From contig JAEUKA010000053.1 of NCBI GenBank assembly GCA_016794465.1, positions 83,999 through 147,998 on the forward strand: a DNA stretch of 64,000 bases, in the 5' to 3' direction. Positions 21,559 to 60,348 of the stretch are shown here, one piece after another (position 1 is the stretch's first letter; each line of letters opens with the position of its first letter). The notes under the pieces were generated by a model. It was not told the origin of the DNA, ran no database searches, and saw nothing but the letters and a program-made list of their open reading frames with translations. The position numbers and the translations under genes are program-made. The DNA comes from Myxococcales bacterium (GTDB taxonomy: Bacteria > Myxococcota_A > Polyangia > Palsa-1104 > JAEUJZ01).

Positions 21559-21560
21559 CA

Positions 21561-23442: not shown

Positions 23443-24681
<1,239 letters not shown>

Positions 24682-24781
24682 GGTGGATGCGCGAGCAAAT
24701 CTCCGAAGCTCATTTACTTTATCAAACCATCGTCGAAAGATGGCTCGCTTTTTCAATCTTCACGGGCAAGGAGCCGCAGTC

Positions 24782-28253: not shown

Positions 28254-31200
28254 CATCTTCCCGTCGCTGGCTTTGGCGTGTTGTGCTTGCGTGGGCCCTC
28301 TTGTGTGGGGTCACGACGGGCTCGCTTCACGCTGCGCCGCGTCCATCGGGAATTGTGCTCCTGCCGCGCAGTGCGGACACGTCTGCGCCGAAGACTGCGC
28401 TGTCGCCGCTGCCGCTGTTTGCCCAGGCGCAGCAGGTGACCACCAAAGTCCCCGAGCCGGACGAAGGCCAGCGCTTTGCCACGCCAGCTCCGGGTCAGGT
28501 TGTCGAAGAGGAAGAGGAAGAGTCCGAAGAAGAAAAGCAGAAGAAGCGCGAAGCGGCCAAGAAGCCCAAGCCCGAGTGTGACAGCGACGGTCAGTGCCCG
28601 GACAAGACAATCTGCGTCAAGCAGTCCTGTCAGAGCATCCAGCGGCCGCTGTCGGCGATCTTCTACTTTCACCGCAAGGGGCCGATTGGCTACCGAATGG
28701 TGTTGCCGCTCTATTACAGCTTTTGGCGGCCCGAGCGGACGACGCGACTGCTTCTACCGCTGTTCGCCGATCGCAAAGACGACAAAGAAAAGACCCGCGA
28801 CGTGTGGGTGTTCCCGACCTATCAATATCGACGGGAACCGGGGATGGTGGCCCACCGGATCTGGCCGCTGTTTTTCTATCAGAACTACGGCTCGCGGGGG
28901 AGCTCGGGGGGTCTGCTGCCGCTGCTGTGGGTGACGCGGACGACTGAGGCCCAGACGGTGGTGCTGCCGCCGCTGCTGTTTTGGCATCACCGCAACTTCG
29001 AGGAAAAGCGGACCGATACGGGCTTCTTGCCGCTGCTGCTGTTTGTGCGCAAGCAGCCGGAGCTGACGCAGGCGTTTTTCCTTGCGCTCGGGTTTTATCG
29101 CAAGACGCCGGAGCGGACGCTCGGTGGGTTCTTGCCGCTGGTGTTTCACTCGCGGACCAGTGAGAAGCGTCAGACGATGGTGCTGCCGCTGTTCTACGAC
29201 GCCGAGAACTACCAGAGCGGTACGCGAACCTCGACGCTGTTTCCGCTGTATCTCTATCACCGAGGGGCGGACAAGAGCCGGCTCATCATCACGCCGCTCG
29301 GTGGCTCGTACAAGAACCCGGAGGAAGAGTCGACGACGACGGTGCTGCTGACGCCGCCGACGTTCCATCGGGATGATCCGCAGCGGCGCTTTACGACGGT
29401 GCTGCCGCCGCTGGCGATGTGGTATCGCAACAAGACGACGGGCGCGGCCTGGGGTTATACCGGGCCGTTCTTTTTCACGCGCGACGAGGAAGGGGGCAGC
29501 GAGGGGCTGCTGCCGCTGTACCTACACTTCTCCAGTCGACGGGCGCAGAGTGACACGCATGTGCTGTTGCCGCTGCTGGCGGCGCTGCACACCTCGCCGA
29601 AGCGCAAGTTTGGCTTCCTGGGTCCGATCTATGGCTGGTCGTCGGAGACGGGCTCGGGCGGAGGACTGCTGCCGCTGATCTCGGTGGCGCGCGGGACCCG
29701 GCCACATGTCGCGCTGTTGCCACCGCTGTTCATTTATTCGGCGGACAAAGAGGCGGGCAGCTATCACGTCTCGGTCGGTCCGGTGTTCGCGCGGGTGAAG
29801 ACGCGGGGAGAGGATGCAGGCTATACCGCCGGAGTGTTCCCGCTGCTGTGGCTGCACCGTCAGGGACAAGGGCAGAGCCAGACCAGTACGCAGGCGCTGT
29901 TCCCGCTGCTGTATCACCACAAGCGGCGGTTTCAAGAGACGCTGCAGCTTGGGCCGTTTTACTACTTCCGCAAGTGTCCCGAGTTCATCGGTGACAAGCG
30001 CGCCGAGGTGCGATCGGGCCTTGTGCCGCTGCTGTTCTGGAAGCGCTCGCCCGAGCACAGCTACACCGTGCTGTTCCCGCTGATTTGGCAGACCCGGACC
30101 CCGCAGAAGTCGGCGCTGGTAGTTGGTCCATTCTTCCACACCACCGAGAAGCGTCCCGACGGCGAGGTCAAGACGACCGGCCTGGTTCCGCTGTTTTATG
30201 TCTCGCAGTCGCCCAAATCGACGTTTGCGATCGCGCCCCTGTTTGCCTACACCCGCACACCTGAGCGCAAGACCTTGTGGCTGGGTCCGTACATCGAGAA
30301 TGTCAGCGGGCTTGGCACCAAGAATCAGGTCATCACCCGCGCGGTGCTGCCGCTGTTCTTTTTTCACTGCAGCCCCGGTCGGCGCGCCACTGTGCTGTTT
30401 CCGCTGTTCATGAATGTGCGCGACGAGGACACCACGTTCCGCTCGGTCGCGATGCTCTACTTCGGCGTGCAGAACAAAGAGCGCTCGGCGCATGTGCTGC
30501 TGCCGCTGTTCTTCCATGTCGCGAGCAAAGAGCGAACCTCGACGGTGCTTTTGCCGTTCTTCTACTCGAAGAACCGCAAGACCGACTCGGTGCAGGCGGG
30601 ACTGTTGCCGCTGTTTGCGTTTGGTCGCAGCAAGGAAACCACCTGGGCGACCACGCCGCTTGGCTTCTTCTACAAAGACGAGAAGGCGACGCGGGCGGCA
30701 GCGCTGCTGTTCTATGCCGACCTGCGACGGGACCGCGAGGACTTTGGTGTGTTTCCGCTGTGGTTCTATACCCGGCGAGACACGGCGCATGCGCTGTTTG
30801 TGCTGCCGTTCTTCTATCACTCGCACGACTCAGCGCGCAGTCGGTCGACGACGGTGCTGGGGCCGCTGTACTTTGGGCGACGGGGGCCGGCGACGTTCGG
30901 AGGCTTCCTGCCGCTGTTCTACGGGCGCAACGACGGGGACGGCTCGTATCGGTTTATGGCGCTGCCGCTGCTCTATTTTTCGCACCGAGCGGGCAAGGCG
31001 CCGGAGGACTGGGTGATTACGCCGCTGTTTGGCGTCAACAAGAGTCCGGTCGGTGTGCGCTTCTGGCTGGGGCCGCTGTATGTGCGTCGGCAAGATCCAG
31101 TGACCTCGGCGGCGCTGTTCCCGCTGTTCTATTACACCCGCGACGACAAGGCGAAGACCTCGACCAGCTTCGTGCTGCCGCTGTTTTTGCACACTCGCTC

Positions 31201-32023
31201 GCCCGAGCGCAGCGTGACGATGGTGACGCCGCTGTTCTGGCACGAGCGGACGCTGACGCGGCGGATCTCGACGCTGTTGCCGCTTATGCTCGATGTCCAT
31301 CACCTGCACAGTGACCGGCTGACGGCGGTGGGACCGCTGGTGCCGTTGGTGGTGCGCTTTGCCGACTATGCGAACAAGACCACGAGCTGGGTGTTTCCGC
31401 CGCTTTTGACCTACGTCAAAAAGCGCGCCGATGGCTATCACAACGCGGTGGTGTTTCCGCTGCTGTGGCACTTCGGGGGCAAGGATCGCTCGACGACGGT
31501 GCTGTTCCCGCTGTTCTTCCACGTGCGCCGTCCGGCGACGCAGTTTACGGCCCTGCTTCCGTTCTTTGCCTACCGTCGCGACGAGCAAGGCACAAAGTCG
31601 CTGCTCTTGCCGCCGCTCCTCACCTGGGTGCGCAACTTCGAGGACGGCAGCCGCGACCGCGTGGTCTTCCCGTTTGTGTGGCACTTCAAGCGACCCCAGC
31701 AGACGACGACGGTGTTCTTCCCGATCGGCGCACACTGGAGCAACGACAAGGGCCACTACACGCTGGTGCTCAACAGCTACTACTACAAGGGCATTGGCGC
31801 GCGAGCCGGGGCCTATCGCTTCGAGTTCTGGCCGCTGTTCCACGTCGGTCGGCCACGTGCGGGCGATCTTGAGTGGAGCGTGCTGTCGGGACTCCTCGGC
31901 TACTCCCGAGACGGCATTCGTCGCACCCTGCGGCTCTTGTGGGGCGTCTTCATTCCGCTTGAGCCCGTCGGCGCGCAGACCAGCTGGTACGGCGCAAGCT
32001 GGCGTATGGCCTCGGATCGCTAA
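28235..32023 (+). CDS. giant secreted repeat protein (~45 degenerate ~21-aa 'LLPLF' repeats)
   Basis: Signal peptide. An E/K-rich acidic-basic segment and a Cys-rich knot ('CDSDGQCPDKTICVKQSCQSI'). After that, over 1000 aa of periodic 'TxVLLPLF(F/W/Y)Hx(R/K)...' units. Confidence 0.55.
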   Translation: MEDDAVTSSRRWLWRVVLAWALLCGVTTGSLHAAPRPSGIVLLPRSADTSAPKTALSPLPLFAQAQQVTTKVPEPDEGQRFATPAPGQVVEEEEEESEEEKQKKREAAKKPKPECDSDGQCPDKTICVKQSCQSIQRPLSAIFYFHRKGPIGYRMVLPLYYSFWRPERTTRLLLPLFADRKDDKEKTRDVWVFPTYQYRREPGMVAHRIWPLFFYQNYGSRGSSGGLLPLLWVTRTTEAQTVVLPPLLFWHHRNFEEKRTDTGFLPLLLFVRKQPELTQAFFLALGFYRKTPERTLGGFLPLVFHSRTSEKRQTMVLPLFYDAENYQSGTRTSTLFPLYLYHRGADKSRLIITPLGGSYKNPEEESTTTVLLTPPTFHRDDPQRRFTTVLPPLAMWYRNKTTGAAWGYTGPFFFTRDEEGGSEGLLPLYLHFSSRRAQSDTHVLLPLLAALHTSPKRKFGFLGPIYGWSSETGSGGGLLPLISVARGTRPHVALLPPLFIYSADKEAGSYHVSVGPVFARVKTRGEDAGYTAGVFPLLWLHRQGQGQSQTSTQALFPLLYHHKRRFQETLQLGPFYYFRKCPEFIGDKRAEVRSGLVPLLFWKRSPEHSYTVLFPLIWQTRTPQKSALVVGPFFHTTEKRPDGEVKTTGLVPLFYVSQSPKSTFAIAPLFAYTRTPERKTLWLGPYIENVSGLGTKNQVITRAVLPLFFFHCSPGRRATVLFPLFMNVRDEDTTFRSVAMLYFGVQNKERSAHVLLPLFFHVASKERTSTVLLPFFYSKNRKTDSVQAGLLPLFAFGRSKETTWATTPLGFFYKDEKATRAAALLFYADLRRDREDFGVFPLWFYTRRDTAHALFVLPFFYHSHDSARSRSTTVLGPLYFGRRGPATFGGFLPLFYGRNDGDGSYRFMALPLLYFSHRAGKAPEDWVITPLFGVNKSPVGVRFWLGPLYVRRQDPVTSAALFPLFYYTRDDKAKTSTSFVLPLFLHTRSPERSVTMVTPLFWHERTLTRRISTLLPLMLDVHHLHSDRLTAVGPLVPLVVRFADYANKTTSWVFPPLLTYVKKRADGYHNAVVFPLLWHFGGKDRSTTVLFPLFFHVRRPATQFTALLPFFAYRRDEQGTKSLLLPPLLTWVRNFEDGSRDRVVFPFVWHFKRPQQTTTVFFPIGAHWSNDKGHYTLVLNSYYYKGIGARAGAYRFEFWPLFHVGRPRAGDLEWSVLSGLLGYSRDGIRRTLRLLWGVFIPLEPVGAQTSWYGASWRMASDR

Positions 32024-34015: not shown

Positions 34016-35515
34016 ATGGACACACACGACGCCATCGTCAGAAGCTACGTCGCTGCCCATCAGCCCGTCACCCAAGAGGTTTCCGCCGTCTTGTCGGTGA
34101 GCGAAGGCCAGCTCCCTGCCGAGCTGCGCGGGGTGCTGTTTCGCAACGGGCCGGGGCGGTTTTCCAATCACGGGCAGACCTACGGACACCTCATCGACGG
34201 CGATGGCATGGTGACCCGCTTTGCGATTGGCGCCAGCGGCCCCGGTGGTACGCCCTGCATTCGCTACCGCAACTGCTACGTCCGCACCACCGAGTTTGTC
34301 TACGAGCAGCGCGCTGGCCGACTCCTCTATCGCAACTTTGGCACGAACCGCGCCGGCGGATTTTTCGGCAACTTCTTCCGCACCCACCTCAAAAACGTCG
34401 CCAACACCAGCGTCATCTATCACCACGGTCGCCTGTTTGCGCTGTGGGAGGGCGGGCTGCCGCACCTGCTCGATCCGGTGACGCTCGATACCATTGAGCG
34501 CTACGACTTTTTTGGCGCGCTGAAAAATCGCGGGCCGCTCCTCGAGCGAGTGCTGCTGCCCGAGCTGCCGTTTTCGGCGCATCCCAAGGTCGATCCGCAG
34601 ACCGGCGAGCTGTACAACTTTGGACTGTATCTTGGACCCAATCCCAAGATCCTCCTGTACGCGATCCGCTCCGGGGTTGCACTGACGGTAACGCGTGAGA
34701 TTCCGCTGCCGCTGCCGCTGCTTGCGCATGACTTTCTGCTGACCAAAAATTGGCAGATTCTGTTTCTGTTTCCGGCCTCGCTGCGGTATCTGCCGACGCT
34801 GATGGGTCGTCCTCCGTCCGCCTCGGTGCAGGAAGTGGCCGGCGGCATGACGCGCATTCTGCTGGTGCCACGCGACGGTGGGCCGGTGCGGCAGTACCAA
34901 GCGGCGCCGTGCTTTGTGCTGCACTTTGTCAATGCCTATGAAGATGAGAACGGTCACCTTGTCGTCGACGCTTGTCGTCAGGAACACTTTCCCGATGCGC
35001 CGCGACCGGGCGAGCTTTTGGCTGGACACATCTCGGACATTCCGCACGTGCAGCTGACCCGCTACGTCATCGATCCGCGCGCAGAAGAAGAGTCGGCGGT
35101 ACGCGAGCAGTCCCTCGGCGGTTTCTCGTCGGAGCTGCCGCGCATTCATCCCGCCTATCAGGGGCTTCCCTATCGCTATGCGTATACGGTGTCGGCGACT
35201 CCGGATGCGCCCCACGGACTGTTTTCGGCGATTGCGCGCATCGACCACCACAGCGACGACACCAAGCTGCGCGACTTTTCCCCCGGAATTCCGGGCGAGC
35301 CGGTGATGGTGCCCCGCCCCGACTCGGTCAGCGAGGACGATGGCTGGATTCTCACGGTCGTCTATCACGGCAGTGAGCATCGCTCGGCGCTCTACATCCT
35401 CGACGCCCGCGATCTGTCGACCGTCTGCGTCGCTGAGCTACCCCACCACGTCCCCCCCGGCTTCCACGGCACCTTCGTCCCCTCGTCGCACTGTCCCCCC
35501 GGCTGGAACTCTTAG
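34016..35515 (+). CDS. carotenoid oxygenase family (RPE65/CCD) dioxygenase
   Basis: 499 aa. 'FRNGPGRF', 'HHGRLFALWEGG', and His-bearing beta-propeller blade motifs. Confidence 0.7.
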   Translation: MDTHDAIVRSYVAAHQPVTQEVSAVLSVSEGQLPAELRGVLFRNGPGRFSNHGQTYGHLIDGDGMVTRFAIGASGPGGTPCIRYRNCYVRTTEFVYEQRAGRLLYRNFGTNRAGGFFGNFFRTHLKNVANTSVIYHHGRLFALWEGGLPHLLDPVTLDTIERYDFFGALKNRGPLLERVLLPELPFSAHPKVDPQTGELYNFGLYLGPNPKILLYAIRSGVALTVTREIPLPLPLLAHDFLLTKNWQILFLFPASLRYLPTLMGRPPSASVQEVAGGMTRILLVPRDGGPVRQYQAAPCFVLHFVNAYEDENGHLVVDACRQEHFPDAPRPGELLAGHISDIPHVQLTRYVIDPRAEEESAVREQSLGGFSSELPRIHPAYQGLPYRYAYTVSATPDAPHGLFSAIARIDHHSDDTKLRDFSPGIPGEPVMVPRPDSVSEDDGWILTVVYHGSEHRSALYILDARDLSTVCVAELPHHVPPGFHGTFVPSSHCPPGWNS

Positions 35516-35608: not shown

Positions 35609-37054
35609 TTATTGCGGACGGAGTCCGGTCGGGCTGGGATGTTGGGGCCAGTCCGAAGGATAGATCAGGTAGGCCGTGCGGTGGGAGTGGGCCCACGCCG
35701 CCTCAAGTGCCGCGCGAGGATAAGTAAGCTGCACCGAAGCATCGTCGCGTGCCGCCGGATCGTTTACGATCACGTCACCGTTTTTCGCAAAGCCGCGCAC
35801 CACAATCAGGTGTCCGTTGGTCTTGCTGATTGGCGCACCGGGCAGCTCGCCGGCCTTGAACGCAATGCTGATGATGAGCGGGACTTTCGCCGCGATCCAC
35901 GGTGCCGCATGGGCAAAGGAATAGAAGCGCGTCACATAGCCGATCATTCCGAAGTTTGCTGCGTACGCGGTGTTAAACGGCCAGTTTCCGGTGCCCTTGT
36001 AGACCCAGTCATAACAGCCGATCGCAGCGTCGGGAACAGAGACGCTTTTGCGGGCATCTTTGGTGACCTGACTCCAGTACTCCATCACCATGCTGGTCGA
36101 GGTCGGACTGCACCAGACCTGGCCACCGCCACCATACGGCTGGTATTCCGGCTTCTTGTACTCTGCCAGCTCTTGGGAGCGCTGCGGAACCGCCAAGTTG
36201 GTGCCAAAGACACTCTCATCCGCTGCCATCGTGGGATACGCGGACTTGTCCATCGAGGCCACCGCTCCGATGAGATACACCGTCGGAAACGTCGCTCCGT
36301 CCGCACTAAACAGAGTCGCCGCCAGCTGATAGGAAGTCGCGGTTTTTTGATTGCGCAGCTCGAAGGTATCGGTGTCTACGTAACCCGTATCATCGGCGGC
36401 TACTTTGATGCTGTGACGCTTGACTGTCCCGGGATCACTTGCCCACACCGGCAGCCGATACCAGCTGCTTAGACCGCTTGGGAGTCGCACCCGGACCCGC
36501 AGCTGTAGCCACGTTCCCGGCGGTGTGATCGCATTCCAAGAGGCAATCAGGTGATCGATAGGAGCCCGCAGGGGAACCTCTTTGGACACCATCGTTCCAT
36601 AATAAAATGCGCCACCATTGTAGTGAGTGACGCCGCTTGGGAGTCCGCTGGGGAGCGGATCTTGGCCGGCACAGAGTCCGACTGCGGCATCAAAGTGAGC
36701 GGCTCCCCCGTCGATGTCTTCGCCCTGGCAGGACAGAGTTCCGGACTTTTGAGGAGACAGCGTGACACCGACCGGACTGGCAGGACCGCCACCGCGCGAA
36801 AGCCCGACACCTTGCCTTGACCACGCGGCAAAGTCCTGCTCTCCCTGCTGCAAAAAGGTGTGGTTGTACTGCAAGTTGGGATCAAGCGGCAGCGTCGGCA
36901 GATCGACTCCGGAAGTAGACGGAATCACCGCGCTCGGATCGGTCGGCGGCGGACTGCGGGTACAGCCTGTCGCAGTCAAAAGCAGTGCGAAAGGGAGTGC
37001 GAAAGGGAGTGCGAACAGAGAGCAACAGCGACGAAGAGCGTAGGGTCTGGACAT
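35609..37054 (-). CDS. Peptidase_C39_2-like cysteine peptidase lipoprotein
   Basis: Lipoprotein signal 'LFALPFALPFALLLTATGC' from the Met at 37054. 'GGGQVWCSPTSTSMVMEYW' fits the C39-like catalytic Cys motif. 'NGHLIVVRGF' fits the His motif. Confidence 0.5.
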   Translation of the reverse strand: MSRPYALRRCCSLFALPFALPFALLLTATGCTRSPPPTDPSAVIPSTSGVDLPTLPLDPNLQYNHTFLQQGEQDFAAWSRQGVGLSRGGGPASPVGVTLSPQKSGTLSCQGEDIDGGAAHFDAAVGLCAGQDPLPSGLPSGVTHYNGGAFYYGTMVSKEVPLRAPIDHLIASWNAITPPGTWLQLRVRVRLPSGLSSWYRLPVWASDPGTVKRHSIKVAADDTGYVDTDTFELRNQKTATSYQLAATLFSADGATFPTVYLIGAVASMDKSAYPTMAADESVFGTNLAVPQRSQELAEYKKPEYQPYGGGGQVWCSPTSTSMVMEYWSQVTKDARKSVSVPDAAIGCYDWVYKGTGNWPFNTAYAANFGMIGYVTRFYSFAHAAPWIAAKVPLIISIAFKAGELPGAPISKTNGHLIVVRGFAKNGDVIVNDPAARDDASVQLTYPRAALEAAWAHSHRTAYLIYPSDWPQHPSPTGLRPQ

Positions 37055-37160
37055 CGGAGTCCTCGCGGTGTGGGGAAAGAAAAAGTCCGCTTCAGCTGGC
37101 GGCATCATAGCGGTCGACAGCGCGCCGTAAAGTCGTACGCTAGACCGAACGGTCCCGCAC

Positions 37161-38006
37161 ATGCGAACAGGTGTCTGGCAGCACTCCGAGGTCGTAAGCC
37201 ACTGGGATCGCGACGAGAACGCGGCGGCCTATCAGCGCTTCTGCGAAGACTTTGCCTACTATCCAAGCGGCAGTGCGGCGCTGGTGCGGGCGGCGGCGAT
37301 TGCGACGGGGGAAAAGGTCGCGGACCTTGGCTGTGGGACGGGCGTGACGACGCGGGCGCTGGTGAGTCGGCTCGGTGATTCGGGGGCGCTGTGGGCGGTC
37401 GATCCGGCGGCGGCGATGCTGCGGGTGGCGCAGGCGGCGAAGTGGCCGCAGCAGGTTCGGTTTGTGCTCGGGGACATCGCGACGCTGGTGGCGCAGGTGC
37501 CGCCGGAGAGCCTGGATGTGATCGTCTGTGCCTCGGCGGTGTGGCTGCCGCCGAATCGACACGCGCTGCTGCGGAAGGTGGCGCAGGCGCTGCGGCCGGG
37601 CGGTCGGTTTGCGCTGTCGATTCCGAGTGAGTTCATCGGTGAGTCGACGCATCTCCTCGACGAGTCAGCGACGCGCTTTTTGACGACGCTGGTGCAGGTT
37701 CGGCAGGAGCTGGCGCTTGCGCCGCCCTTACCGCCTCAGCTGCCGATCGAGCCGCCGAGTCTTGGGGCCTGGCGCGAGTCGCTCTCGTCGGTCGGCTTTG
37801 CGCGGATCGAGGTCGGTGTGCATCCCTACGTGATGACCCATGCCGAGTGGGCGGCGCACCTGTGTCTGCCGGTGGTGCTCGATGGCCTGCTGCCGCTGGC
37901 GCGGGAGAGTCAGCGGCAGCAGTTTGCGCAGCAGCTTCTGGCGCGGCTTGACCCGATTGCCCCGGCGGCCCGACCATGGCACATCCTCGTCGCCTGGCGC
38001 GGCTAG
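37161..38006 (+). CDS. class I SAM-dependent methyltransferase
   Basis: 'VADLGCGTGVTTRAL' motif I. 281 aa. Confidence 0.65.
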   Translation: MRTGVWQHSEVVSHWDRDENAAAYQRFCEDFAYYPSGSAALVRAAAIATGEKVADLGCGTGVTTRALVSRLGDSGALWAVDPAAAMLRVAQAAKWPQQVRFVLGDIATLVAQVPPESLDVIVCASAVWLPPNRHALLRKVAQALRPGGRFALSIPSEFIGESTHLLDESATRFLTTLVQVRQELALAPPLPPQLPIEPPSLGAWRESLSSVGFARIEVGVHPYVMTHAEWAAHLCLPVVLDGLLPLARESQRQQFAQQLLARLDPIAPAARPWHILVAWRG

Positions 38007-38099: not shown

Positions 38100-41000
38100 A
38101 TGACCCCGTCTGCTCCTCCTCTTGACGTTGCCGCGACGCTCGAAGGCAAGCGCATCCTGTTCATTGGCGGTACCGGCTTCGTCGGCAAAGTGACGATGTC
38201 GATGCTGCTCTGCAAGTATCCGCAGCTTGGTCGGCTGTACGCGCTGGTGCGGCCCGGATCGGGCTTCACCGCCGAGACGCGCTTCTTTCAAAAGATTGCC
38301 AAGTCGCGGCCATTTGATCCGGTGCGGCAGACGTTTGGCGACGCGACCGAGCAGTATCTGCGCGAAAAAGTGGTGCCGCTGGCCGGCGATGTGTCGCGGG
38401 TGAATGTCGGGCTGTCCGACGCGGATGTGGCGCTGCTGACGCAAGACGGGCCGCTCGATGTGATCCTCAACTCGGCGGGGCTGGTGTCGTTCAATCCGTC
38501 GCTGGAGTCGGCGCTGCGCATCAACGTTCACGGCGTTCGCTATGTCATGGACTTGGCGCGTGCGACGGGGGCCAAGGTGGTTCACGTCTCGACCTGTTTT
38601 GTGGCGGGACGGCGCGAAGGCGAGGTCTGGGAAGACGAGCAGCTGATTGGCTATTTTCCGAGGCGACCAGGGCATCAGCGCTCGGAGTCGGCGGGCTCGG
38701 CGCTGCGCAAAGGGGACTTTGATCCCGAGGCCGAGATTGCCGACTGTGAGCGACTGATCGAGCAGACCCGCCAGCGCGCCGAAGATCGGGCTCGGCTGTC
38801 GATGTTTCGCGATCAAGGCGCCGACCGGCTGCGGGCCGAGGGGCGTGATCCCGAGGACGAGCGGCACCTCAAAGCGGCGCTGCAGCGGGAAAAGAAGACC
38901 TGGACCGCCGAGCGACTGACCGAGCTGGGCATGGAGCGCGCGCAGCACTGGGGCTTTACCAACACCTACACCTACACCAAGAGCCTTGGTGATCAGCTGT
39001 GTGCGCTGGCGGCGCTGCCCGAGTCGGAGCGCAAGGATGGCAAGAAGCCGGTCCGCGTCGCGATTGTTCGGCCCGCGATCGTCGAGTCGGCGATGAGCTT
39101 CCCGTTCCCCGGCTGGAACGAGGGCTTTAACACCACCGCCCCGATGATCTTCATGGTCTTAAAAGGCCACATCCAGGTGCCGGCGTCGCACAACACGATC
39201 TTGGACATGATCCCGGTCGATATGGTGTCGGCGGCGACGATTGCGGCGGTGGCAGCGACGATTGCCGAGCGCAACGAGCTTATCTATCACGTCGGATCGA
39301 GTGACTCGAGTCCGCTGCGGATGCCGCGCTCCGTCGAGCTGACCGGCCTTTATAAGCGTCGTCACTACCGCGACAAGATCGAGCAAGGCCAGGGCGACGC
39401 GATCATGAACCGGGTGCGCTCGCGGCTGGAGTCGATTCCCGTCAGCAAAGCCCGCTATCAGCGCCTGAGTGTGCCGCTGTTGCGCGGGGTGGCCGAGGCG
39501 GCTAGCTCGGCGATTGGCGACGCGCTCGAAAAGCTGTGGGGCATGCCGAGGCTGACGGCGCTGGGCGAGCGGGCCCGCGAGACGCTGGATGCGACGGCGC
39601 AGCTGGCCAAGCAAGGCGAGTCGATCTTCGACCTGTTTTTGCCGTTTGTTCACGACAACGCGCCGATCTTCCGCGCCGACAACACCCGTCGCTTGTATCG
39701 CAGCCTGACGCCGCACGACCAGACGATCCTGCGCTGGAATCCCGAGACGATCAACTGGCGCGAGTACATGCTCGGGGTTCACATTCCTGGCCTGGAAAAG
39801 TGGATCTTCCCGTCGCTCGATGAGGAGTTTCAGGCCCGCGCCAAGGCGGTCTACACCTATCGCGACCTGCTCGAGATGCTGGAGTCGGCGGCCAAGGCCT
39901 ATCGGGGGCGGACGGCGATGCGGCTGTTGCCACCGCTCGATCCCGACGGTGAGCCGGTCGGCTACGGCCAGCGCTACACCTATCGCGACCTGAGCGAGCG
40001 CTCGGCGCGGGTCGGAGAGACGCTGCGGCGACTGGGAATGCCGGTGTCGGGCAAGGTCCTGCTTTTGGCGGAAAATCGTCCCGAGTGGGCGATCTCGTAC
40101 TTTGGCGTGCTGAAGGCGGCGGGCGTGGTGGTTCCCGTCGACAAAGATGCGTCGCTCGACGAAGTGCTGAACATCTGTCGCTGGGCGGATGTCTACGCAG
40201 CGATCGTCTCGGACAAGGTGCAGGCGCGGATCGATGTGCGGGGAGCGCTCTCGCAGGCGATGCCGCAGGTCAAGGTGCTCAGCTTCGGCGAAGTCCTCGG
40301 TGGAGAGACGCCGCACGCGCTGATTCCCGCGAGCAGCCTGCCGACGCTGACGCTGACGGGTCGGGCCGAGGAGATGGCGTCGCTGATCTTTACCTCGGGC
40401 ACCACCGGGAGGCCGAAGGGCGTGATGCTGTCACACCGCAACTTCACGTCGCTGCTGGCCAAGATGGGCGGGGTCTTCGATGTCGACAAGCACGACGGAC
40501 TGCTGTCGGTGCTGCCGCTGCATCACACCTTCGAGTTTTCGGCGGGCCTGCTGATGCCGCTGTCGCAGGGCGCGCAGATTGCCTACCTGCCCGAAGTCAA
40601 CGCGGACTCGCTGCAGCATGCGTTTTCGTCGGCGCACATCACTGGCATGGTCGGTGTGCCGGCGCTGTATCAGCTGCTCTACCGTCGCATTACCAAGCAG
40701 ATCTCGGATCGGCTGCCGTCGCGGGCGGTGCCGTGGGTGCTGCGACTGCTCGAGCGGCTGTATGACCTGACGAGGGCGGCACGGGAGCGGACGCGCAAGG
40801 CGCTGGGCTTCGAGCTGAACCTGCCTCGGGCGCTGTTCTTGCCGGTGCACTCGCGGTTTGGCGGCAAGCTGCGACTGCTGATCAGCGGCGGCTCGGCGCT
40901 GCCCGTCGAGACGATGAAAGAGTATCGAGGCCTTGGCTTCAACCTCTATGAAGGCTATGGCATGACCGAGAGCTCGCCGGTGCTGACGGTGACGCGACCC

Positions 41001-42680
41001 GGCACGCCGCTTTTGCTCGGTAGCGTCGGTGAGCCGCTGCCCGGCATCGATGTCAAGATTCACGAACCCGATGCGAGTGGCGTCGGTGAGATCATCGCCT
41101 CGGGTCCCAACGTCATGCTCGGTTACTACAACGACCCCGAGCTGACCGCCGAGACGATCAAGCGCGGCTACCTGCACACCGGCGACCTCGGCCGCACCGA
41201 CAGCAAAGGCCACCTGTACATCGTCGGACGCAAGAAGGACGTGATCATTGGCCTCAACGGCGAAAACGTCTATCCCGACGAGCTAGAAGAGCGCTATCGC
41301 GAGTCGCCGTTTGTCAAAGAGCTGTGCGTCGTCGGACTGCCCGAGGCGGAGCTAAAAGATTCGCCGTCTGCCGATGACAAGGGTGAAACGGTGGCGTGCT
41401 TGATTGTGCCGGCGTACGACGCACCGCAGGCCGAGGGTCTGTTGCGAGAAGAAGTCCGCAATAAGGTCCGCGAGCACGTCCGACAGGTGTCGGGCAAGCT
41501 GTCGGTGGCCAAGCGCGTCAAGATCCTGCACCTGACCGACCTGGAGCTGCCGAAGACGGCGACGCGCAAGGTCAAGCGCAAGCAAGTGGTCGAGGAGCTG
41601 CGACGGCTGGAGCGGACGCGGCGACAGGCCCAGGCCGAAGCGCAGGTCGGTGGCTCGACGGCGCCGGGAGACTGGCTGCTCAGCCTGCTCGCCGATGTGA
41701 CGGGCAAGCCGCGCTCGGCGGTTCGTCCTGACTCGACGCTGCAAGAGCTGGGGCTCGACTCGCTGTCGTTTGCCGAGCTGGGCGTGGCGCTTGAGGCTGC
41801 GGGCGTTTCTGTACCGGAAAATCTTGACATTTCCAGCCTGGTGAGCGTGCCCGAGCTGCAGAAGGCGGTGGCGCAGTGGGGCCGTCGCAAGCCGAGCAAA
41901 GACGCGCAGCCGGTCCAGTCGAAGAAGAAGAAGCCCGAGACAGAGAGCACCGACGATCGCTTGGTCCTGCCGCGCTGGCTGGTGCGGGCCGGCAATCACG
42001 GGCTCAACGTCGGCCAGCGCGCGCTGTACGAGCGGGTGCTGAAGACGCGGGTCACGGGGCGAGCATATCTGCCGGCGGCGCGACAGTTTATCGTCGCTGC
42101 GAACCACAGCAGTCACCTCGATATGGGGCTGGTCAAGCATGCCTTGGGCGACTGGGGCGATCGGCTGGTGGCGCTGGCGGCGAAGGACTATTTCTTCGAC
42201 GATCCGCTCAAGCGCGTCTACTTCGAGAACTTCACCAACCTGATTCCGATGGATCGCACCGGATCGCTGCGCGAGTCACTGCGGCTGGCGGCGCGGGTGA
42301 TCGAGGACGGCTACGTGCTGCTCATCTTCCCCGAGGGGACGCGCAGTGAAAACGGCGTGATGCAGTCGTTTAAGGCGTCGATTGGCTACCTGTCCCTACA
42401 CCATCGGATCGACGTGCTGCCGATGTACTTGGAAGGAACCCACGACGCGATGCCGAAGGGCAATGTGCTGCCCAAGCAGGGAACGAAGGTGGCGGCGCAC
42501 ATTGGGCCGGTGCTCAGCTTCGAGAGCCTGCAAAGAGCGGTCGCCAAGGTGCCCCGGACCGAGCAGAACCGCGAGGCGGCGCGACTCGTCGAGCTGGCGG
42601 TGCGCAAGCTGGCGCCCATCGGTCCCAATCGCCACATGCCGACCTCGTCTGAGGAAGCCGGCGACGGGAAGTCGAGCTAG
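38100..42680 (+). CDS. elbD: multidomain ether-lipid biosynthesis enzyme ElbD-like (reductase - AMP-ligase - ACP - AGPAT)
   Basis: Four domains in order. (1) 'ILFIGGTGFVGKVTMSML' NAD(P)-binding fatty-acyl reductase/thioester-reductase domain. (2) 'IFTSGTTGRPKGVMLSHRNF' AMP-binding domain. (3) 'LGLDSLSFAELGVALE' phosphopantetheine site. (4) '...ANHSSHLDMGLV...FPEGTRSENG' PlsC-type acyltransferase. 1526 aa. Confidence 0.75.
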   Translation: MTPSAPPLDVAATLEGKRILFIGGTGFVGKVTMSMLLCKYPQLGRLYALVRPGSGFTAETRFFQKIAKSRPFDPVRQTFGDATEQYLREKVVPLAGDVSRVNVGLSDADVALLTQDGPLDVILNSAGLVSFNPSLESALRINVHGVRYVMDLARATGAKVVHVSTCFVAGRREGEVWEDEQLIGYFPRRPGHQRSESAGSALRKGDFDPEAEIADCERLIEQTRQRAEDRARLSMFRDQGADRLRAEGRDPEDERHLKAALQREKKTWTAERLTELGMERAQHWGFTNTYTYTKSLGDQLCALAALPESERKDGKKPVRVAIVRPAIVESAMSFPFPGWNEGFNTTAPMIFMVLKGHIQVPASHNTILDMIPVDMVSAATIAAVAATIAERNELIYHVGSSDSSPLRMPRSVELTGLYKRRHYRDKIEQGQGDAIMNRVRSRLESIPVSKARYQRLSVPLLRGVAEAASSAIGDALEKLWGMPRLTALGERARETLDATAQLAKQGESIFDLFLPFVHDNAPIFRADNTRRLYRSLTPHDQTILRWNPETINWREYMLGVHIPGLEKWIFPSLDEEFQARAKAVYTYRDLLEMLESAAKAYRGRTAMRLLPPLDPDGEPVGYGQRYTYRDLSERSARVGETLRRLGMPVSGKVLLLAENRPEWAISYFGVLKAAGVVVPVDKDASLDEVLNICRWADVYAAIVSDKVQARIDVRGALSQAMPQVKVLSFGEVLGGETPHALIPASSLPTLTLTGRAEEMASLIFTSGTTGRPKGVMLSHRNFTSLLAKMGGVFDVDKHDGLLSVLPLHHTFEFSAGLLMPLSQGAQIAYLPEVNADSLQHAFSSAHITGMVGVPALYQLLYRRITKQISDRLPSRAVPWVLRLLERLYDLTRAARERTRKALGFELNLPRALFLPVHSRFGGKLRLLISGGSALPVETMKEYRGLGFNLYEGYGMTESSPVLTVTRPGTPLLLGSVGEPLPGIDVKIHEPDASGVGEIIASGPNVMLGYYNDPELTAETIKRGYLHTGDLGRTDSKGHLYIVGRKKDVIIGLNGENVYPDELEERYRESPFVKELCVVGLPEAELKDSPSADDKGETVACLIVPAYDAPQAEGLLREEVRNKVREHVRQVSGKLSVAKRVKILHLTDLELPKTATRKVKRKQVVEELRRLERTRRQAQAEAQVGGSTAPGDWLLSLLADVTGKPRSAVRPDSTLQELGLDSLSFAELGVALEAAGVSVPENLDISSLVSVPELQKAVAQWGRRKPSKDAQPVQSKKKKPETESTDDRLVLPRWLVRAGNHGLNVGQRALYERVLKTRVTGRAYLPAARQFIVAANHSSHLDMGLVKHALGDWGDRLVALAAKDYFFDDPLKRVYFENFTNLIPMDRTGSLRESLRLAARVIEDGYVLLIFPEGTRSENGVMQSFKASIGYLSLHHRIDVLPMYLEGTHDAMPKGNVLPKQGTKVAAHIGPVLSFESLQRAVAKVPRTEQNREAARLVELAVRKLAPIGPNRHMPTSSEEAGDGKSS

Positions 42681-44929
42681 TACTTCACCTTGAGCTTGGT
42701 GCCCTTCTTTTTGACCTTGAGCGACTTTTCGTGAAGCTCGTCGGAAGAAGGGTTGAGGAAGCCGAGCGTGTACTTGCCGGGCTTGAGCATCAGCTCGTCG
42801 GTGGGGCAGCTTAAGCCGCTGTCGTTGCCGTTGACCAGGATGCGCAGCTCGCCGTCGCGCTTGCACTTGACCTTGACCTGCGCGCTGCCGGCGACATCGT
42901 CGGGGAGGCCGGCTTTGACTAGCTTGGCGCTGATGTGCTGACCGCCGCTTGCTTCTTGGCGGAACAGCTTCCACGAGTCAGCGACGAGCAGCAGCTTGTG
43001 AGAACCGGGCTTGACCTTGAGCTTGAGCGGCGCTTTGCCCTTGGCTTCTCCGTCGAGAAATACGGTGGCGGCGGGCGTGCTGTCCACTTGCAGCTCGTCG
43101 CTTGGCGTCTTGGCGATGGCTGGCTCGATGCTTGCCGCTGATCCGTCGGGTTTGTCGCCACCATCGGCCACAGACTTGCCACCATCGGGGCTGCGACCAA
43201 TCAGGGCAAACATCACGACCCCCGCGAGGAGAGCTGCGCCAACCCCGATGCCGATAAAAGCGGGAGTGCCGAGCCGCTTGGGCTCCGTCGGTGGAGGGGA
43301 TGGTTCTACCGGCGCAGCGGACTGACTGACGGCGGCGGACGAGGGCGCCATGACCACGTCATCGTCCTTGGCGATCGCGGGCAGATCTGGCTTCGAGTAG
43401 TTCCCCGTCGAGTCGAGCGCGGGATTTTCTTCTTCCTCCAGCACTCCAGCGTCGAGCGTCGAGGGATCAGCTTGCTGGGCCTGCTGGGCTTCCTCGGCCT
43501 GCCGGCGCGCTTCTTCCGCGAGCCTAAACTGATCGGTCGGCTCATCACCGACGGCACCCGAGGGCCGCGCGGTCCGTCGCGGAGTGGCTCGAGGCAGCGG
43601 CTTCATCGCCGGATTGGTATCGGTCACCGAGATCGTATCCGTCTCGGGCGGCGGCGCTGTCGACGGACGCTTCTTGGCGGTGGCGATGATCCGGCTGGAG
43701 ATGTCATCCGCACTATTGACAGCGGCAGCCTCAGCGGCATCGACATCTGCCGTCGGAGTGACGGCTGACGCTGCCGAGCCAGCCATCCCGGCTCCAAAGG
43801 CTGCGCGCGGATTGATCGACACCGGACTGGCCGTTGGCTTGGCTGGAGACTCCGTCGCTGCTTTGGCCACCGCATCGGGCGCATCAGGCTGCTTCGCGGC
43901 GGCGGCGGGCGTTGGCACAGCGGGCTTGGCGGCTGCTTTGGCTCCGCTGGTTCCCGGCTTGGCAGCAGCTTCACCCGGCTTACCGACGGCAATGCGCATG
44001 CTCGGCGGCGGCGGCAGCGGCTCGGCACTCGAGCGATCGCTGGTGGTCACGGGCTGCGGCACGGTGTCGCCGGCCAGCTCGAACAGCTGTCCAAAGCGCT
44101 GTAGCTGCGTCTGGGCGTGATCGACCACTCGGATCGCGTCCAGCTGCGCTTTGAGTTCCAGGATGTTCGACTGTCGCTGGCCCGCCGTTTTTTGGGTCGC
44201 CTTTTGACAGAGCGCTTGCAGCGTCGACAGCGCCGCTCTTGACTCTGCGGTCAGCTTGTCGATGGGGGCAAGGCGCAACAGCTCGGCGAGCAGGCTGCCC
44301 AGACCGAACACCTCACTGCGCGGGCCTGGGACGCCACTGTCGACCAGCTCGGGGGCCAGATAGCTCGCCAGCGGCTTCAGCGCTCCGTCGAGCTTCCACT
44401 GTCCTTGCGGCAGCACCGACCACAGCCCAAGCTCGGCCAGGTGTGCTTCCCCGCTCTGATCGATCCAGACGCACGACGGACCGAGCAGTCCGTGCATCAC
44501 CCCGCGCTCTTGGGCCGCCGCCAGCGCTCGCGCCAGCTGCTGGCCAATCAGCGCCACCAGCTGTGGCAACAGCGCCTTGGCCTCGTCGCCGAGTAGATCG
44601 AGCCCAGCCTTCAGCTTCCCCAGATCGGCAAAGCCGACAAACTCGTAGGCGACGAACGTATCGCTGCCTTGGCTGCCAAACTCTTCGAGCCGCAGCAGGT
44701 TTTGCTGCTGGATCTCTGCCACGCTGCGCAGCGCCGCCTGAAGCCGTAGGTTCGCCGTCGGATCTTGCGCCAGCACCGCCGCGCCGATTCGATAGACCAG
44801 ATACGGTCGGTCCAGACCGGCCAGCCCGAAGCGCTTGGCTCGCCACACCTCGCCGGCGGGGCCTTGGCCAAGTCGCTCGACGCAGGTATAGCGCCCGAGC
44901 GTGAAGGTACGCGATAGCACGGGACTCAT
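42677..44929 (-). CDS. pseudokinase domain + TM + PEGA domain protein
   Basis: The N-terminal kinase-like fold has 'HGLLGPSCVW' in place of HRDLKPxN and 'AELGL' in place of DFG. There is a long P/A-rich linker. The C-terminus has '...LKVKCKRDGELRILVNGNDSGLSCPTDELMLKPGKYTLGF' PEGA. Confidence 0.55.
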   Translation of the reverse strand: MSPVLSRTFTLGRYTCVERLGQGPAGEVWRAKRFGLAGLDRPYLVYRIGAAVLAQDPTANLRLQAALRSVAEIQQQNLLRLEEFGSQGSDTFVAYEFVGFADLGKLKAGLDLLGDEAKALLPQLVALIGQQLARALAAAQERGVMHGLLGPSCVWIDQSGEAHLAELGLWSVLPQGQWKLDGALKPLASYLAPELVDSGVPGPRSEVFGLGSLLAELLRLAPIDKLTAESRAALSTLQALCQKATQKTAGQRQSNILELKAQLDAIRVVDHAQTQLQRFGQLFELAGDTVPQPVTTSDRSSAEPLPPPPSMRIAVGKPGEAAAKPGTSGAKAAAKPAVPTPAAAAKQPDAPDAVAKAATESPAKPTASPVSINPRAAFGAGMAGSAASAVTPTADVDAAEAAAVNSADDISSRIIATAKKRPSTAPPPETDTISVTDTNPAMKPLPRATPRRTARPSGAVGDEPTDQFRLAEEARRQAEEAQQAQQADPSTLDAGVLEEEENPALDSTGNYSKPDLPAIAKDDDVVMAPSSAAVSQSAAPVEPSPPPTEPKRLGTPAFIGIGVGAALLAGVVMFALIGRSPDGGKSVADGGDKPDGSAASIEPAIAKTPSDELQVDSTPAATVFLDGEAKGKAPLKLKVKPGSHKLLLVADSWKLFRQEASGGQHISAKLVKAGLPDDVAGSAQVKVKCKRDGELRILVNGNDSGLSCPTDELMLKPGKYTLGFLNPSSDELHEKSLKVKKKGTKLKVKY

Positions 44930-48864: not shown

Positions 48865-50493
48865 CTAGCGCAGCGGGACGTGCTCGCGGGCTGCGGCGAG
48901 GAGGCTGCCGTTTTCGCACAGGGAGCGCACCGCCTCGATCTCTTGGTAGAGGGGGCGGTCGCAGACCAGCTCGGGCACTCTCGACCGGACGACCCGATGG
49001 ACTGCGGACAGTGCGGCGGCTGGCATGAGGGGCGCTCGCAGCGAGATGCCTTGGGTCGCGCAGCACAGCTCAATCGCCAGCACGGTACGGACGTTGTCAA
49101 CGATGCGGGTCAGCTTGTCGGCGGCATGAACGCCCATCGAGACGTGATCTTCGCGCCCTGCCGACGAAGGAATCGAGTCCACCGACGCCGGATGCGCGAG
49201 GATCTTGTTCTCTGACACCAAGGCCGCCGCCGTCACCTGCGCAATCATGTAGCCGGAGTGAAGGCCGCTGTGGCGGACCAAAAACGCCGGCAGTCCCGAC
49301 GACAAGTGCGGGTTGACAAGCTGCTCGATGCGGCGCTCTGCGATGTTGGCCAGCTCGGCGGTGGCAATGGCCGCAAAGTCGAGCGCCTGCGCCACCGGCT
49401 GTCCGTGGAAGTTGCCGCCACTGACGATGTCAAAGCGCAGTCCGCCGCCGCCATCGCCGCCGCCATCGCCTGGGGCCGGCTCGTCCTCGACGAAGATCAG
49501 CGGATTGTCGGTCGCACTGCGCGACTCTTGCAGCAGCACATTCTGGGCGTAGCCGAGTCCATCGCGGGTGGCACCATGAACCTGCGGCATACAGCGCAGC
49601 GAGTACGGATCTTGGACCTTGCCGCAGCCACGGTGCGAATCGACGATCGGACTGTCCGCCAGGAGCGCGCGCAGGTTCTGCGCCGACACCGCCTGACCCG
49701 GCTGCGGTCGGGCGGCATGAATCCGGGGGTCAAACGCACGCGGCGTCCCGAGCAGGGCTTCCAGCGACATCGCCCCAATGACATCGGCGAGCGTACACAG
49801 ATCCAGCGCATCGGCGACGGCCAGCATTCCCATCGCGGTCATACACTGGGTGCCGTTGATCAGCGCCAGGCCTTCCTTCGCCGCCAGCACGATCGGCTGA
49901 AGCCCCGCCTCATCGTGAGCCTGCGCCGAGGTCTTGAGCTGCACCCGACCGGGCAGACCGACCTGCACCTCGCCTTCGCCGATCAGCCCGAGCGTCAGAT
50001 GCGCCAGCGGGGCCAGATCTCCCGACGCACCGACCGAGCCACGACTCGGCACGCAGGGCGAGATGCGCTGATTGAGCAGCTGACACAGGCGCTCTGCGAC
50101 GAAGAGCCGGACTCCACTGTGACCGAGCGAGAGCGTACAAGCGCGCAGCAGCAGCATCCCGCGCACCACCGGAATCGGCAGCAGTGGCCCCACCCCGGCG
50201 GCGTGCGAGCGAACCAAGTTGTACTGCAGCTCGACGATCTGCGTGGCCGAGATCCGGACATCGGCCAGAAAGCCAAAGCCGGTGTTGATGCCATAGACAC
50301 TGGCCGCGCTGTCTCCGCCTGCGATCAGCTGATCCACCACCGCCCGCGAGCGCTCGATCCGCTGCTTGGCAGCGTCGGAGAGCACGACCTCGCGACCTTC
50401 GTGACAGATCTGGCGCATCGCAGGGAAGTCCAGCTCATCGTGACCAATGCGGAACGGCGTGACGAGTGATCGGCTTGGCTTCGAGATCGACAT
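48865..50493 (-). CDS. histidine/aromatic amino acid ammonia-lyase (MIO enzyme)
   Basis: 'GSVGASGDLAPLAH' Ala-Ser-Gly MIO motif. 'VYGINTGFG' N-terminus. Start at 'MSISKPS' (50493). The listed 737-aa ORF runs upstream through the 21-bp tandem repeat and I treat that extension as an artefact. Confidence 0.8.
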   Translation of the reverse strand: MSISKPSRSLVTPFRIGHDELDFPAMRQICHEGREVVLSDAAKQRIERSRAVVDQLIAGGDSAASVYGINTGFGFLADVRISATQIVELQYNLVRSHAAGVGPLLPIPVVRGMLLLRACTLSLGHSGVRLFVAERLCQLLNQRISPCVPSRGSVGASGDLAPLAHLTLGLIGEGEVQVGLPGRVQLKTSAQAHDEAGLQPIVLAAKEGLALINGTQCMTAMGMLAVADALDLCTLADVIGAMSLEALLGTPRAFDPRIHAARPQPGQAVSAQNLRALLADSPIVDSHRGCGKVQDPYSLRCMPQVHGATRDGLGYAQNVLLQESRSATDNPLIFVEDEPAPGDGGGDGGGGLRFDIVSGGNFHGQPVAQALDFAAIATAELANIAERRIEQLVNPHLSSGLPAFLVRHSGLHSGYMIAQVTAAALVSENKILAHPASVDSIPSSAGREDHVSMGVHAADKLTRIVDNVRTVLAIELCCATQGISLRAPLMPAAALSAVHRVVRSRVPELVCDRPLYQEIEAVRSLCENGSLLAAAREHVPLR

Positions 50494-50589
50494 AGCGGCG
50501 TTCGTAGCACAGGGTCGGGGGATGTGTATTTTTCGCGGCTTTCTCTGGCGTCGCCGCCGCTGAAGGTGCGGTTTGTGCACTGTGGGCTC

Positions 50590-50725
50590 TTGCAAAGGAA
50601 AAAACCTGGCGGTTTTCTCCTTTGGAACCTCTTTCCCTTTGCGGACCTGAGAGGTCAACCCCCCCATCCCCCCTTGGAAGGGGGCAGCCCCTAACCCCAG
50701 CCCTTTCCCCGCTGGGGGAAAGGGA
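50590..50725. other. cluster of GC-rich hairpins in the ammonia-lyase upstream region
   Basis: Three paired elements. 'caaaggaaaaaacc'/'ggttttctcctttg' (50593-50624). 'ccccctt gg aaggggg' (50669-50684). 'ccctttcccc gctg ggggaaaggg' (50701-50724), a perfect 10-bp stem. Confidence 0.35.
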
Positions 50726-50818
50726 GCACGAGCCTCGGTGGAGGCTTTGGATGTAAACAGAGCTTTCGCTGACTTTGGGTTGTCTGGGCTCGCTTCGCTT
50801 TGCTTCCTGTTGCGGACA

Positions 50819-51222
50819 CTGGGCAAGACAAAACAAACCCCGGGCAAGACGAACCAGACACCGGGCAAGACAAAACGGACCCCGGGCAAGACGAAACGGA
50901 CCCCGGGCAAGACGAAACGAACCCCGGGCAAGACAAAACAAACCCCGGGCAAGACAAAACGGACCCCGGGCAGGACAAAACGGACACCGGGCAAGACGAA
51001 ACAAACACCGGGCAAGACAAAACGAACCCCGGGCAAGACGAAATGGACACCGGGCAAGACAAAACGAACCCCGGGCAAGACAAATCAAACACCGGGCAAG
51101 ACGAAACGAACACCGGGCAAGACAAAACGGACACCGGGCAAGACAAAACGGACACCGGGCAAGACGAACCGAACCCCGGGCAAGACGAAACAAACACCGG
51201 GCAAGACAAAACGGACCCCGGG
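50819..51222. repeat. tandem repeat, 19 copies of a 21-bp unit (consensus ccgggcaagacRaaacRRacM)
   Basis: Head-to-tail units, every one exactly 21 bp. Substitutions fall at fixed positions. A-rich, atypical for the genome. Open in all six frames. Confidence 0.9.
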
Positions 51223-51358
51223 CTGTATTTTTTTGGGTTCTTGCTTGCGTGGCTGCTGGCGACTGTGGAATCGATGAAGAGACAGCTATCCGCAGAAATG
51301 GCCGGTAACGCCGCTTGGATCTTCTTCGTGGGACCGAGACGGCAAGGAGGCAGTGCAG

Positions 51359-59970: not shown

Positions 59971-60348
59971 ATGAGCGCAGACCGCAAGAAGATCCTGCTC
60001 GTTGACGACTCGATGACCATCCGCAAGCTGGCCCGAGCGATTCTCGGCGCGGACTACGACTTCGTCGAGGCTGAGAACGGCGCAGATGCCAGCACCGTCG
60101 CACGCGCTGAGCGGCCGGATCTGATCGTCATGGACCTCAACATGCCGGTAAAAGATGGCATCGAGGGACTGGCCGACCTCAAGAGCGAGCCCGACACCCA
60201 GGGCATTCCGGTCATCATCTTGACCTCGGAAACGGAGGAGTCGAAGCGCACTCGCTGCCTGGCGCTGGGCTGTGCCGAGTTTCTGCGCAAGCCACTCGAT
60301 CGCACCCAGATCCGAGGCGCGGTCACGAGGTGGCTGGGAGAGCGATGA
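59971..60348 (+). CDS. CheY-like response regulator (receiver only)
   Basis: 'ILLVDDSMTIRKL...DLIVMDLNMPVKDG...'. 125 aa. Confidence 0.8.
   Translation: MSADRKKILLVDDSMTIRKLARAILGADYDFVEAENGADASTVARAERPDLIVMDLNMPVKDGIEGLADLKSEPDTQGIPVIILTSETEESKRTRCLALGCAEFLRKPLDRTQIRGAVTRWLGER

Follow-up and report, generated by a model that had tools for sequence, protein, structure and literature searches.

Can a gene with the complete architecture of elbD be regarded as a true elbD when the other genes of the elb operon are missing around it? This question is raised by a 64,000-nucleotide (nt) stretch of contig JAEUKA010000053.1 from a Myxococcales bacterium (the window, in what follows), which contains a large open reading frame (ORF) for a protein resembling ElbD of Myxococcus xanthus. 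In M. xanthus, elbABCDE corresponds to MXAN_1531 to MXAN_1527; ElbA and ElbE belong to the NAD-dependent epimerase/dehydratase family, ElbB is classed as a HAD-type hydrolase, and ElbC is listed without an assigned function (reviews, including PMC9131029). ElbD itself has been described as an N-terminal FAR1-like (fatty acyl-CoA reductase, FAR) domain followed by acyl-CoA synthetase (ACS), acyl carrier protein (ACP) and AGPAT-like domains (PMC9131029). Judged from its sequence, the window gene is an intact and ordinary ElbD orthologue, a new member of a known family, and the sole unusual feature of this elbD is its drift away from the usual operon partners. We consider it highly probable (about 0.88) that this gene of an uncultured Polyangia bacterium (Myxococcota) encodes a functional orthologue of ElbD, the multifunctional enzyme central to the aerobic pathway by which myxobacteria make alkyl ether lipids.

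An intact four-domain elbD

The original prediction had described a single ORF of 1526 amino acids (aa) that combines the four domains of an ElbD-like enzyme. We found one ATG-initiated frame of this length (Table 1), and Pfam recovered all four domains (PF07993, PF00501, PF00550 and PF01553) above the curated cut-offs and in the order that had been claimed. The codon-position GC contents of the frame (GC1 0.67, GC2 0.45, GC3 0.83) have the profile of a real gene in this window, whose sequence has a GC content of roughly 64%. The peptide strings that had been quoted, GLDSLSFAEL, HSSHLD and FPEGTR, are all present in the translation, where the first contains Ser1221, the second lies in NHSSHLD (H1336...D1341) and the third occupies residues 1410-1415. 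The catalytic motifs of all four domains are intact, and their key catalytic residues were conserved at 0.89-1.00 when 70 full-length relatives were aligned.

In the reductase domain, the Rossmann motif GGTGFVGK (aa 23-30) and the catalytic YTYTK (Y290, K294) were conserved at 0.89-0.99 among the 70 family members, except for the variable second G of the Rossmann motif. The best solved relative of this domain is the fatty acyl-CoA reductase 7eoz (E 5.6e-43), which the N-terminal 570 aa match in both the Rossmann and the FAR_C parts, including the active-site segment NTYTYTK. The PF03015 match to the FAR C-terminal domain scored 30.9 bits, under the 35.4-bit cut-off, but the 7eoz alignment continues across aa 270-570, so the full FAR fold is covered in spite of this sub-threshold score. 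The terminal reductases of non-ribosomal peptide synthetases (NRPSs) matched the window reductase with E values of only 6e-5 to 6e-4. In the adenylation domain, PF00501 matched aa 595-1010 (E 6.8e-74) and PF13193 matched aa 1061-1157 (E 1.2e-6), with the motifs SGTTGRPKG (766-774), GYGMTE (952-957), TGD (1027-1029), GRKKD (1043-1047) and K1157; this domain is nearest to fatty-acid CoA ligase families (NCBIfam, best 2.1e-80). The phosphopantetheine attachment residue of the ACP domain, Ser1221, is coded by nt 41760-41762, and D-S-L within GLDSLS is conserved at 0.99 in the same 70 sequences. The acyltransferase (AT) motifs HX4D (H1336...D1341) and FPEGTR reach 0.96-1.00, and the sole solved relative of this domain found by sequence is Thermotoga maritima PlsC (5kym, E 1.2e-12).

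The identification as ElbD is supported by comparison over the full length of the protein. ElbD of M. xanthus DK1622 (ABF88003.1), the ElbD query of a published survey (PMC11868695), aligned collinearly with the window protein in a single alignment over aa 6-1504 with 705/1505 identities (47%), and the Pfam order of the two proteins is the same (FAR-ACS-ACP-AT). The identity was 46% to the Stigmatella aurantiaca DW4/3-1 protein (ADO70106.1) and 45%, over 97% of the length, to ElbD of Corallococcus coralloides (locus L054). Together with the placement of the window protein among operon-linked ElbDs in the tree described below, the shared domain order and the 47% end-to-end identity uphold the assignment to ElbD. 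Neither outcome that the original prediction had named as a refutation was seen, since all four domains were recovered and there was no grouping with carboxylic acid reductases.

A genome scan yielded 329 relatives, and the best 80 of the 329 loci (L numbers) were compared. Nearly all of these 80 are from Myxococcota, with full-length identities of 41-92%, and the nearest among them is that of an uncultured Polyangia metagenome-assembled genome (MAG; L001, JBGAUT010000004.1) at 92%. Three metagenome proteins (P0001-P0003) share 99% identity with the window protein. The related MAG and metagenome proteins have been annotated merely as 'AMP-binding protein' or 'long-chain acyl-CoA synthetase'. 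The ratio of nonsynonymous to synonymous substitution rates (dN/dS) of elbD against L001-L004 was 0.08-0.12, indicating that the solo gene is under strong purifying selection; that of the neighbouring oxygenase gene was 0.11-0.13, and the dN/dS values of the more distant pairs, for which dS is near or past saturation, are rough.

Stepwise dispersal of the elb operon

The gene content around elbD was examined with tblastn (E 1e-8), using Corallococcus ElbA, ElbB, ElbC and ElbE and the products of the window neighbours as queries against the window and all 80 loci. The canonical operon, as seen at L054, encodes Epimerase - HAD - Lar_N - ElbD - Epimerase. The dominant arrangement is elbB-elbC-elbD-elbE (BCDE), which was complete in 32/80 loci and compatible with many more that were cut by contig ends, and which was seen across Myxococcia, Haliangiales/Kofleriaceae and many Polyangia. 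Loci with elbD and elbE only occur among some Myxococcia and others (L052, L075, L076, L080, L015 and L017). No elbA, elbB, elbC or elbE was detected by these Corallococcus queries in the window or in L001-L006, and there was no elb partner within 10 kb of elbD in the window and its close relatives. When nearly all large ORFs of the 64 kb were searched with Pfam, HAD, Lar_N and stand-alone Epimerase proteins were likewise lacking, as were any of the AGPS (FAD_binding_4) or CarF type. Synteny with the elb cluster of M. xanthus, which the original prediction had proposed as a check, is thus absent, and the window gene lacks the family feature of being encoded in an elbB-elbC-elbD-elbE cluster. 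The operon context of elbD has already been treated as variable, and unlinked arrangements are allowed (PMC9131029).

To place these arrangements we used a neighbour-joining distance tree of 70 ElbD sequences, calculated without support values and with FARAT and Aas outgroups not included. The tree was midpoint-rooted on the long branch of L030, perhaps an artefact of stop-to-stop ORF extraction, and the placement of the window clade is unaffected by this. The window clade nests inside ElbDs flanked by elbC and/or elbE (L007, L014, L012 and L016), which themselves lie within BCDE-type loci. Its successive outgroups are L004 (solo), L007 (CDE) and L014 (CD); further out are a second solo clade (L008-L011 and L013), then L012 and L016 (CDE), and then BCDE loci. 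With the synteny states mapped on this tree, the solo state of elbD is derived in the window lineage, and within a single Polyangia lineage the elb operon has come apart in steps, from BCDE through CDE or CD to D alone. The second solo clade, at the 70%-identity level, has ThiG upstream on the opposite strand and two conserved TPR proteins downstream, and no recurrent non-elb enzyme partner was found among these other solo loci (L008-L011 and L013 examined).

A separate observation concerns ElbC, the most conserved of the elb partners (53-63% identity across classes). A lactate racemase N-terminal domain (Lar_N, PF09861) was found in ElbC of L054 (8361-9971, 7e-35) and of L007 (8390-9988, 7.5e-37). 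The likeness of ElbC to LarA is not mentioned in the open-access literature searched, and the LarA-like enzyme predicted beside ElbD may bear on the ether-forming or redox step.

Genes adjacent to elbD

The features of the locus are summarized in Table 1. The neighbours named in the original prediction, namely an S-adenosylmethionine (SAM) methyltransferase, a carotenoid-cleavage oxygenase and a pseudokinase-PEGA protein, are all as described. The kinase-like protein has 'HGL' for HRD and 'ELG' for DFG and has no VAIK lysine, which makes it a probable pseudokinase; it also has a long Ala/Pro linker of low complexity and, at its C-terminus, a PEGA domain. The 2-nt overlap between the start of the methyltransferase gene and the longest-ORF start of the divergent C39 gene suggests that one or both of these starts are probably mis-called.

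Table 1. Coordinates of elbD, its encoded domains and the adjacent genes in the window
Feature	Position	Strand	Basis or remark
elbD orthologue, complete ORF (1526 aa plus stop)	38100..42680	+	ATG start; ORF list, translation
FAR-type NAD(P)H reductase, aa 23-379	38166..39236	+	NAD_binding_4 PF07993, E 6.5e-46
FAR C-terminal ('Sterile', FAR_C) domain, aa 504-570	39609..39809	+	PF03015, sub-threshold
Adenylation / long-chain acyl-CoA-synthetase-type domain	39882..41570	+	AMP-binding PF00501 + AMP-binding_C PF13193
Acyl carrier protein domain, aa 1191-1241	41670..41822	+	PP-binding PF00550, E 2.7e-9
PlsC/AGPAT-type acyltransferase, aa 1316-1444	42045..42431	+	Acyltransferase PF01553, E 3e-20
Class I SAM methyltransferase	37161..38006	+	PF13649/PF08241
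C39-like peptidase, between oxygenase and methyltransferase	35609-37162	-	Missing from the original prediction
RPE65/carotenoid-cleavage-type oxygenase	34016-35515	+	
Kinase-like plus PEGA protein	42677-44929	-	

It had also been suggested that these neighbours could be functionally linked to elbD, which our comparison does not support. The order of genes (GH3 hydrolase, RPE65-type oxygenase, C39-like peptidase on the opposite strand, methyltransferase, elbD, convergent pseudokinase-PEGA, PLC-like and GAF-GGDEF) is common to L001, L002, L003 and L006, relatives at 88-92% ElbD identity only; L005, cut by a contig end upstream, has only the downstream part visible. Such confinement to very close relatives is what recent common ancestry alone would give. 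The oxygenase gene is set apart from elbD by a gene on the opposite strand, and the pseudokinase-PEGA gene is convergent with elbD, with overlapping stop codons, so neither can be co-transcribed with elbD. The methyltransferase gene is the sole co-directional neighbour; it is separated from elbD by a 93-nt gap in which no terminator-like hairpin was found, and the counts from promoter and terminator scans were no higher than the shuffled expectation. In L001, L002 and L006 the identity of ElbD is about 90%, but that of the methyltransferase is only 50-59%, and the methyltransferase gene is missing from L003, whose C39 gene lies directly beside elbD. The dN/dS of the methyltransferase gene is 0.43-0.66 against about 0.1 for the neighbouring genes. 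The methyltransferase was rejected as a functional partner of elbD on this low identity, its absence in L003 and its fast evolution. The present neighbours of elbD thus show no sign of a functional link.

Predicted function and alternative readings

By homology, the adenylation domain would activate a long-chain fatty acid as acyl-AMP and load it onto the phosphopantetheine arm at Ser1221 of the in-cis ACP. With NAD(P)H as reductant, the FAR1-like domain would then turn the acyl thioester, tethered or CoA-bound, into a fatty aldehyde or alcohol, and the PlsC-type domain (HX4D) may transfer an acyl chain to a glycerol-phosphate or dihydroxyacetone phosphate (DHAP)-type acceptor, so that the three steps together would provide both substrates for a 1-O-alkyl glycerolipid. 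In the case of M. xanthus ElbD, the ACS and ACP activities have been shown in vitro, disruption of elbD strongly reduces alkyl and vinyl ether lipids, and the i15:0 aldehyde is lost in elbD mutants (PMC9131029). With elbD separated from elbB (HAD), elbC (LarA-like) and elbE (NAD-dependent reductase), the genome would have to carry these partners at other loci, or ElbD would have to do without them.

Several points weigh against assigning the window gene to a functional ether-lipid pathway. Inactivation of elbE lowered the ether lipids of M. xanthus, and the reductase and AT activities are biochemically undemonstrated even for M. xanthus ElbD, no AT activity having yet been detected in vitro for any ElbD (PMC9131029). 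The requirement of ElbD for ether lipids has been shown only in M. xanthus and S. aurantiaca (PMC9131029), and an elbD homologue is no guarantee of ether lipids, as in the case of Pontiella (PMC11868695). In addition, with no elbA, elbB, elbC, elbE, AGPS or CarF genes in the 64 kb, the pathway context is unconfirmed locally.

The separation from the operon also allows other readings of the enzyme. The Polyangia ElbD could be a self-sufficient ether-lipid (or fatty alcohol or aldehyde) synthase that works without ElbB, ElbC and ElbE, maybe co-transcribed with a product-modifying methyltransferase where one is present, which we think improbable; if it were so, the accessory Elb proteins would lie outside the core chemistry, and the ether-forming step would be narrowed to ElbD itself. 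A salvage function like that of Aas, in which the enzyme would load its own ACP and re-acylate lysophospholipids, the FAR domain being redundant or making fatty alcohol for another purpose, would fit the absence of elbB, elbC and elbE from the locus, the work on purified ElbD of M. xanthus, in which neither AT activity nor fatty alcohol was detected (PMC9131029), and strong partial NCBIfam matches (NF006386, 1e-62; NF005291, 1.3e-45; both far under their cut-offs). However, the FAR motifs GxTGFVGK and YxxxK are intact, the whole-gene dN/dS of about 0.1, which is not a per-domain value, gives no hint of a decaying domain, and ether lipids disappear when orthologues of the window protein are deleted (PMC9131029). 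The domain order is also different, Aas having an N-terminal AT and neither ACP nor FAR, and we regard this salvage function as very unlikely. Membership of the Aas families was rejected on the scores (NF006386, 212 bits against a 1221-bit cut-off; NF005291, 156 against 1349).

Much the same low probability is given to a FARAT-like role, in which the enzyme would supply fatty alcohol and acyl-DHAP to an AGPS encoded elsewhere, in a eukaryote-like route rather than the AGPS-independent Elb route. FARAT has been implicated in the synthesis of ether-lipid precursors, with AGPS as its partner (review), and its combination of domains is mirrored by the FAR and GNPAT/AGPAT-like domains in one window protein; elbC and elbE are missing locally, and elbD and agps homologues are both present in many Myxococcota MAGs (PMC11868695). 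On the other hand, the window protein has ACS and ACP domains, both of which FARAT lacks, no AGPS gene lies within the 64-kb window, and deletion of the AGPS gene MXAN_1676 only slightly lowered the ether lipids of M. xanthus, where elbD is the main route (PMC9131029). FARAT membership was rejected because about 650 aa of AMP-binding plus PP-binding sequence stand between FAR and AT. The possibility that had been named as a refutation of ElbD, an NRPS-like carboxylic acid reductase or a secondary-metabolite enzyme unrelated to membrane lipids, has in its favour the presence of adenylation, carrier and reductase domains, and linear gramicidin synthase and other NRPS adenylation domains among the PDB matches. 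We consider its probability negligible, since the reductase is N-terminal and of the FAR type, with a far better match to 7eoz than to NRPS reductases, the C-terminus carries a fused PlsC-type AT, the top NCBIfam matches are fatty-acid CoA ligases, the orthology to ElbD is full-length, and no NRPS, polyketide synthase or tailoring genes are nearby. Carboxylic acid reductase membership was rejected in the absence of the adenylation-carrier-reductase (A-PCP-R) order and of a C-terminal thioester reductase.

Distribution among lineages

The original prediction had also called this architecture a strong lineage marker, which was an overstatement. According to published surveys (including PMC11868695), there are ElbD homologues, some of them split or standalone, in Acidobacteriota, Poribacteria, Latescibacterota, Chloroflexota and other phyla, although most non-myxobacterial homologues are without the FAR domain according to an earlier review (PMC9131029). 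The full four-domain form is overwhelmingly myxobacterial among the best 80 of the 329 genome matches. Unless thresholds for identity and architecture are given, the term 'strong lineage marker' claims too much. A 4.5-kb contig labelled Acidobacteriota (L045, JBLMXA010000970.1) carries an ElbD at 49% identity that falls inside the Haliangiales/Kofleriaceae group of the tree, and this contig may represent a mis-binned myxobacterial rather than an acidobacterial ElbD.

Other features of the window

A lower-GC islet at 20173-22208 (+), with a GC content of 0.56 against about 0.65 in the flanks, codes for two proteins, an AAA_15/AAA_21 ATPase of 461 aa and one of 215 aa, that match PADLOC PtuA (1.4e-97) and PtuB (5.2e-40), and it is probably a horizontally acquired Septu anti-phage defence pair. 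A second PEGA protein is encoded at the window start (2-820, +), and a canonical-looking Ser/Thr kinase at 23443-24756 (-). The large ORFs at 28235-32023 (+, 1262 aa) and 871-2973 (+, 700 aa) have a gene-like codon composition and no Pfam match. In a TTG-initiated ORF of 737 aa (48865-51078, -), the match to an aromatic amino acid lyase of the HAL/PAL family (1.2e-187) begins only at aa 219, and the ORF has either an N-terminal extension of about 200 aa or an over-called start codon. A stand-alone AMP-binding acyl-CoA synthetase (55451-57061, +; 536 aa, 2.7e-90) is encoded upstream of a TonB-dependent receptor gene. The window also contains a MoxR AAA ATPase - DUF58 - BatA/VWA cluster (14599-18954, -), a chemotaxis-like set at 59971-63013 (+; response regulator, CheW, CheR-TPR, response regulator and CheW), rho (10416-11663), a glycerol-kinase-type FGGY kinase gene (13077-14567) and panB (51353-52324), and such housekeeping clusters are consistent with a core chromosomal context. 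Neither the Rfam nor the tRNA scan of the window gave a match.

Implications and comparison with known systems

The present gene extends the known ElbD family to an uncultured Polyangia lineage of wastewater and environmental metagenomes, which matters little alone. Its modest value is comparative: an operon that has been dismantled while elbD stays constrained offers a natural test of which partners ElbD needs, and the stepwise dispersal of elb could inform studies of how the ether bond is formed in the aerobic bacterial pathway. For surveys in which ether-lipid capacity is deduced from elbD matches or cluster-based searches, it is also a warning.

Among known systems, that of the elb cluster (MIBiG BGC0000871), with ElbD of M. 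xanthus (MXAN_1528; UniProt Q1DC43) and of S. aurantiaca, has the FAR-ACS-ACP-AGPAT order and the catalytic motifs in common with the window protein. The window protein is 56 aa longer than M. xanthus ElbD, owing to small insertions and a longer C-terminal tail, and comes from the class Polyangia whereas M. xanthus ElbD comes from Myxococcia; unlike M. xanthus elbD, its gene lies outside an elbABCDE operon. The homologues in Polyangia MAGs (for example, L001) are the same protein in the same neighbourhood, differing in the methyltransferase, which is diverged or, as in L003, absent. Aas shares with the window protein an AMP-binding acyl-activating domain and a PlsC-type AT that uses an ACP-bound acyl chain; Aas of Escherichia coli has its AT at the N-terminus, works with a separate ACP and lacks a reductase. 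FARAT (M. xanthus MXAN_1675, Tetrahymena and Dictyostelium) combines an N-terminal FAR-type reductase with a C-terminal glycerolipid AT, as does the window protein. Finally, the counterpart of the eukaryotic/plant FAR1-type enzyme 7eoz is here one of four domains, with a segment (aa 185-269) that is longer than the matching segment of 7eoz (residues 184-225).

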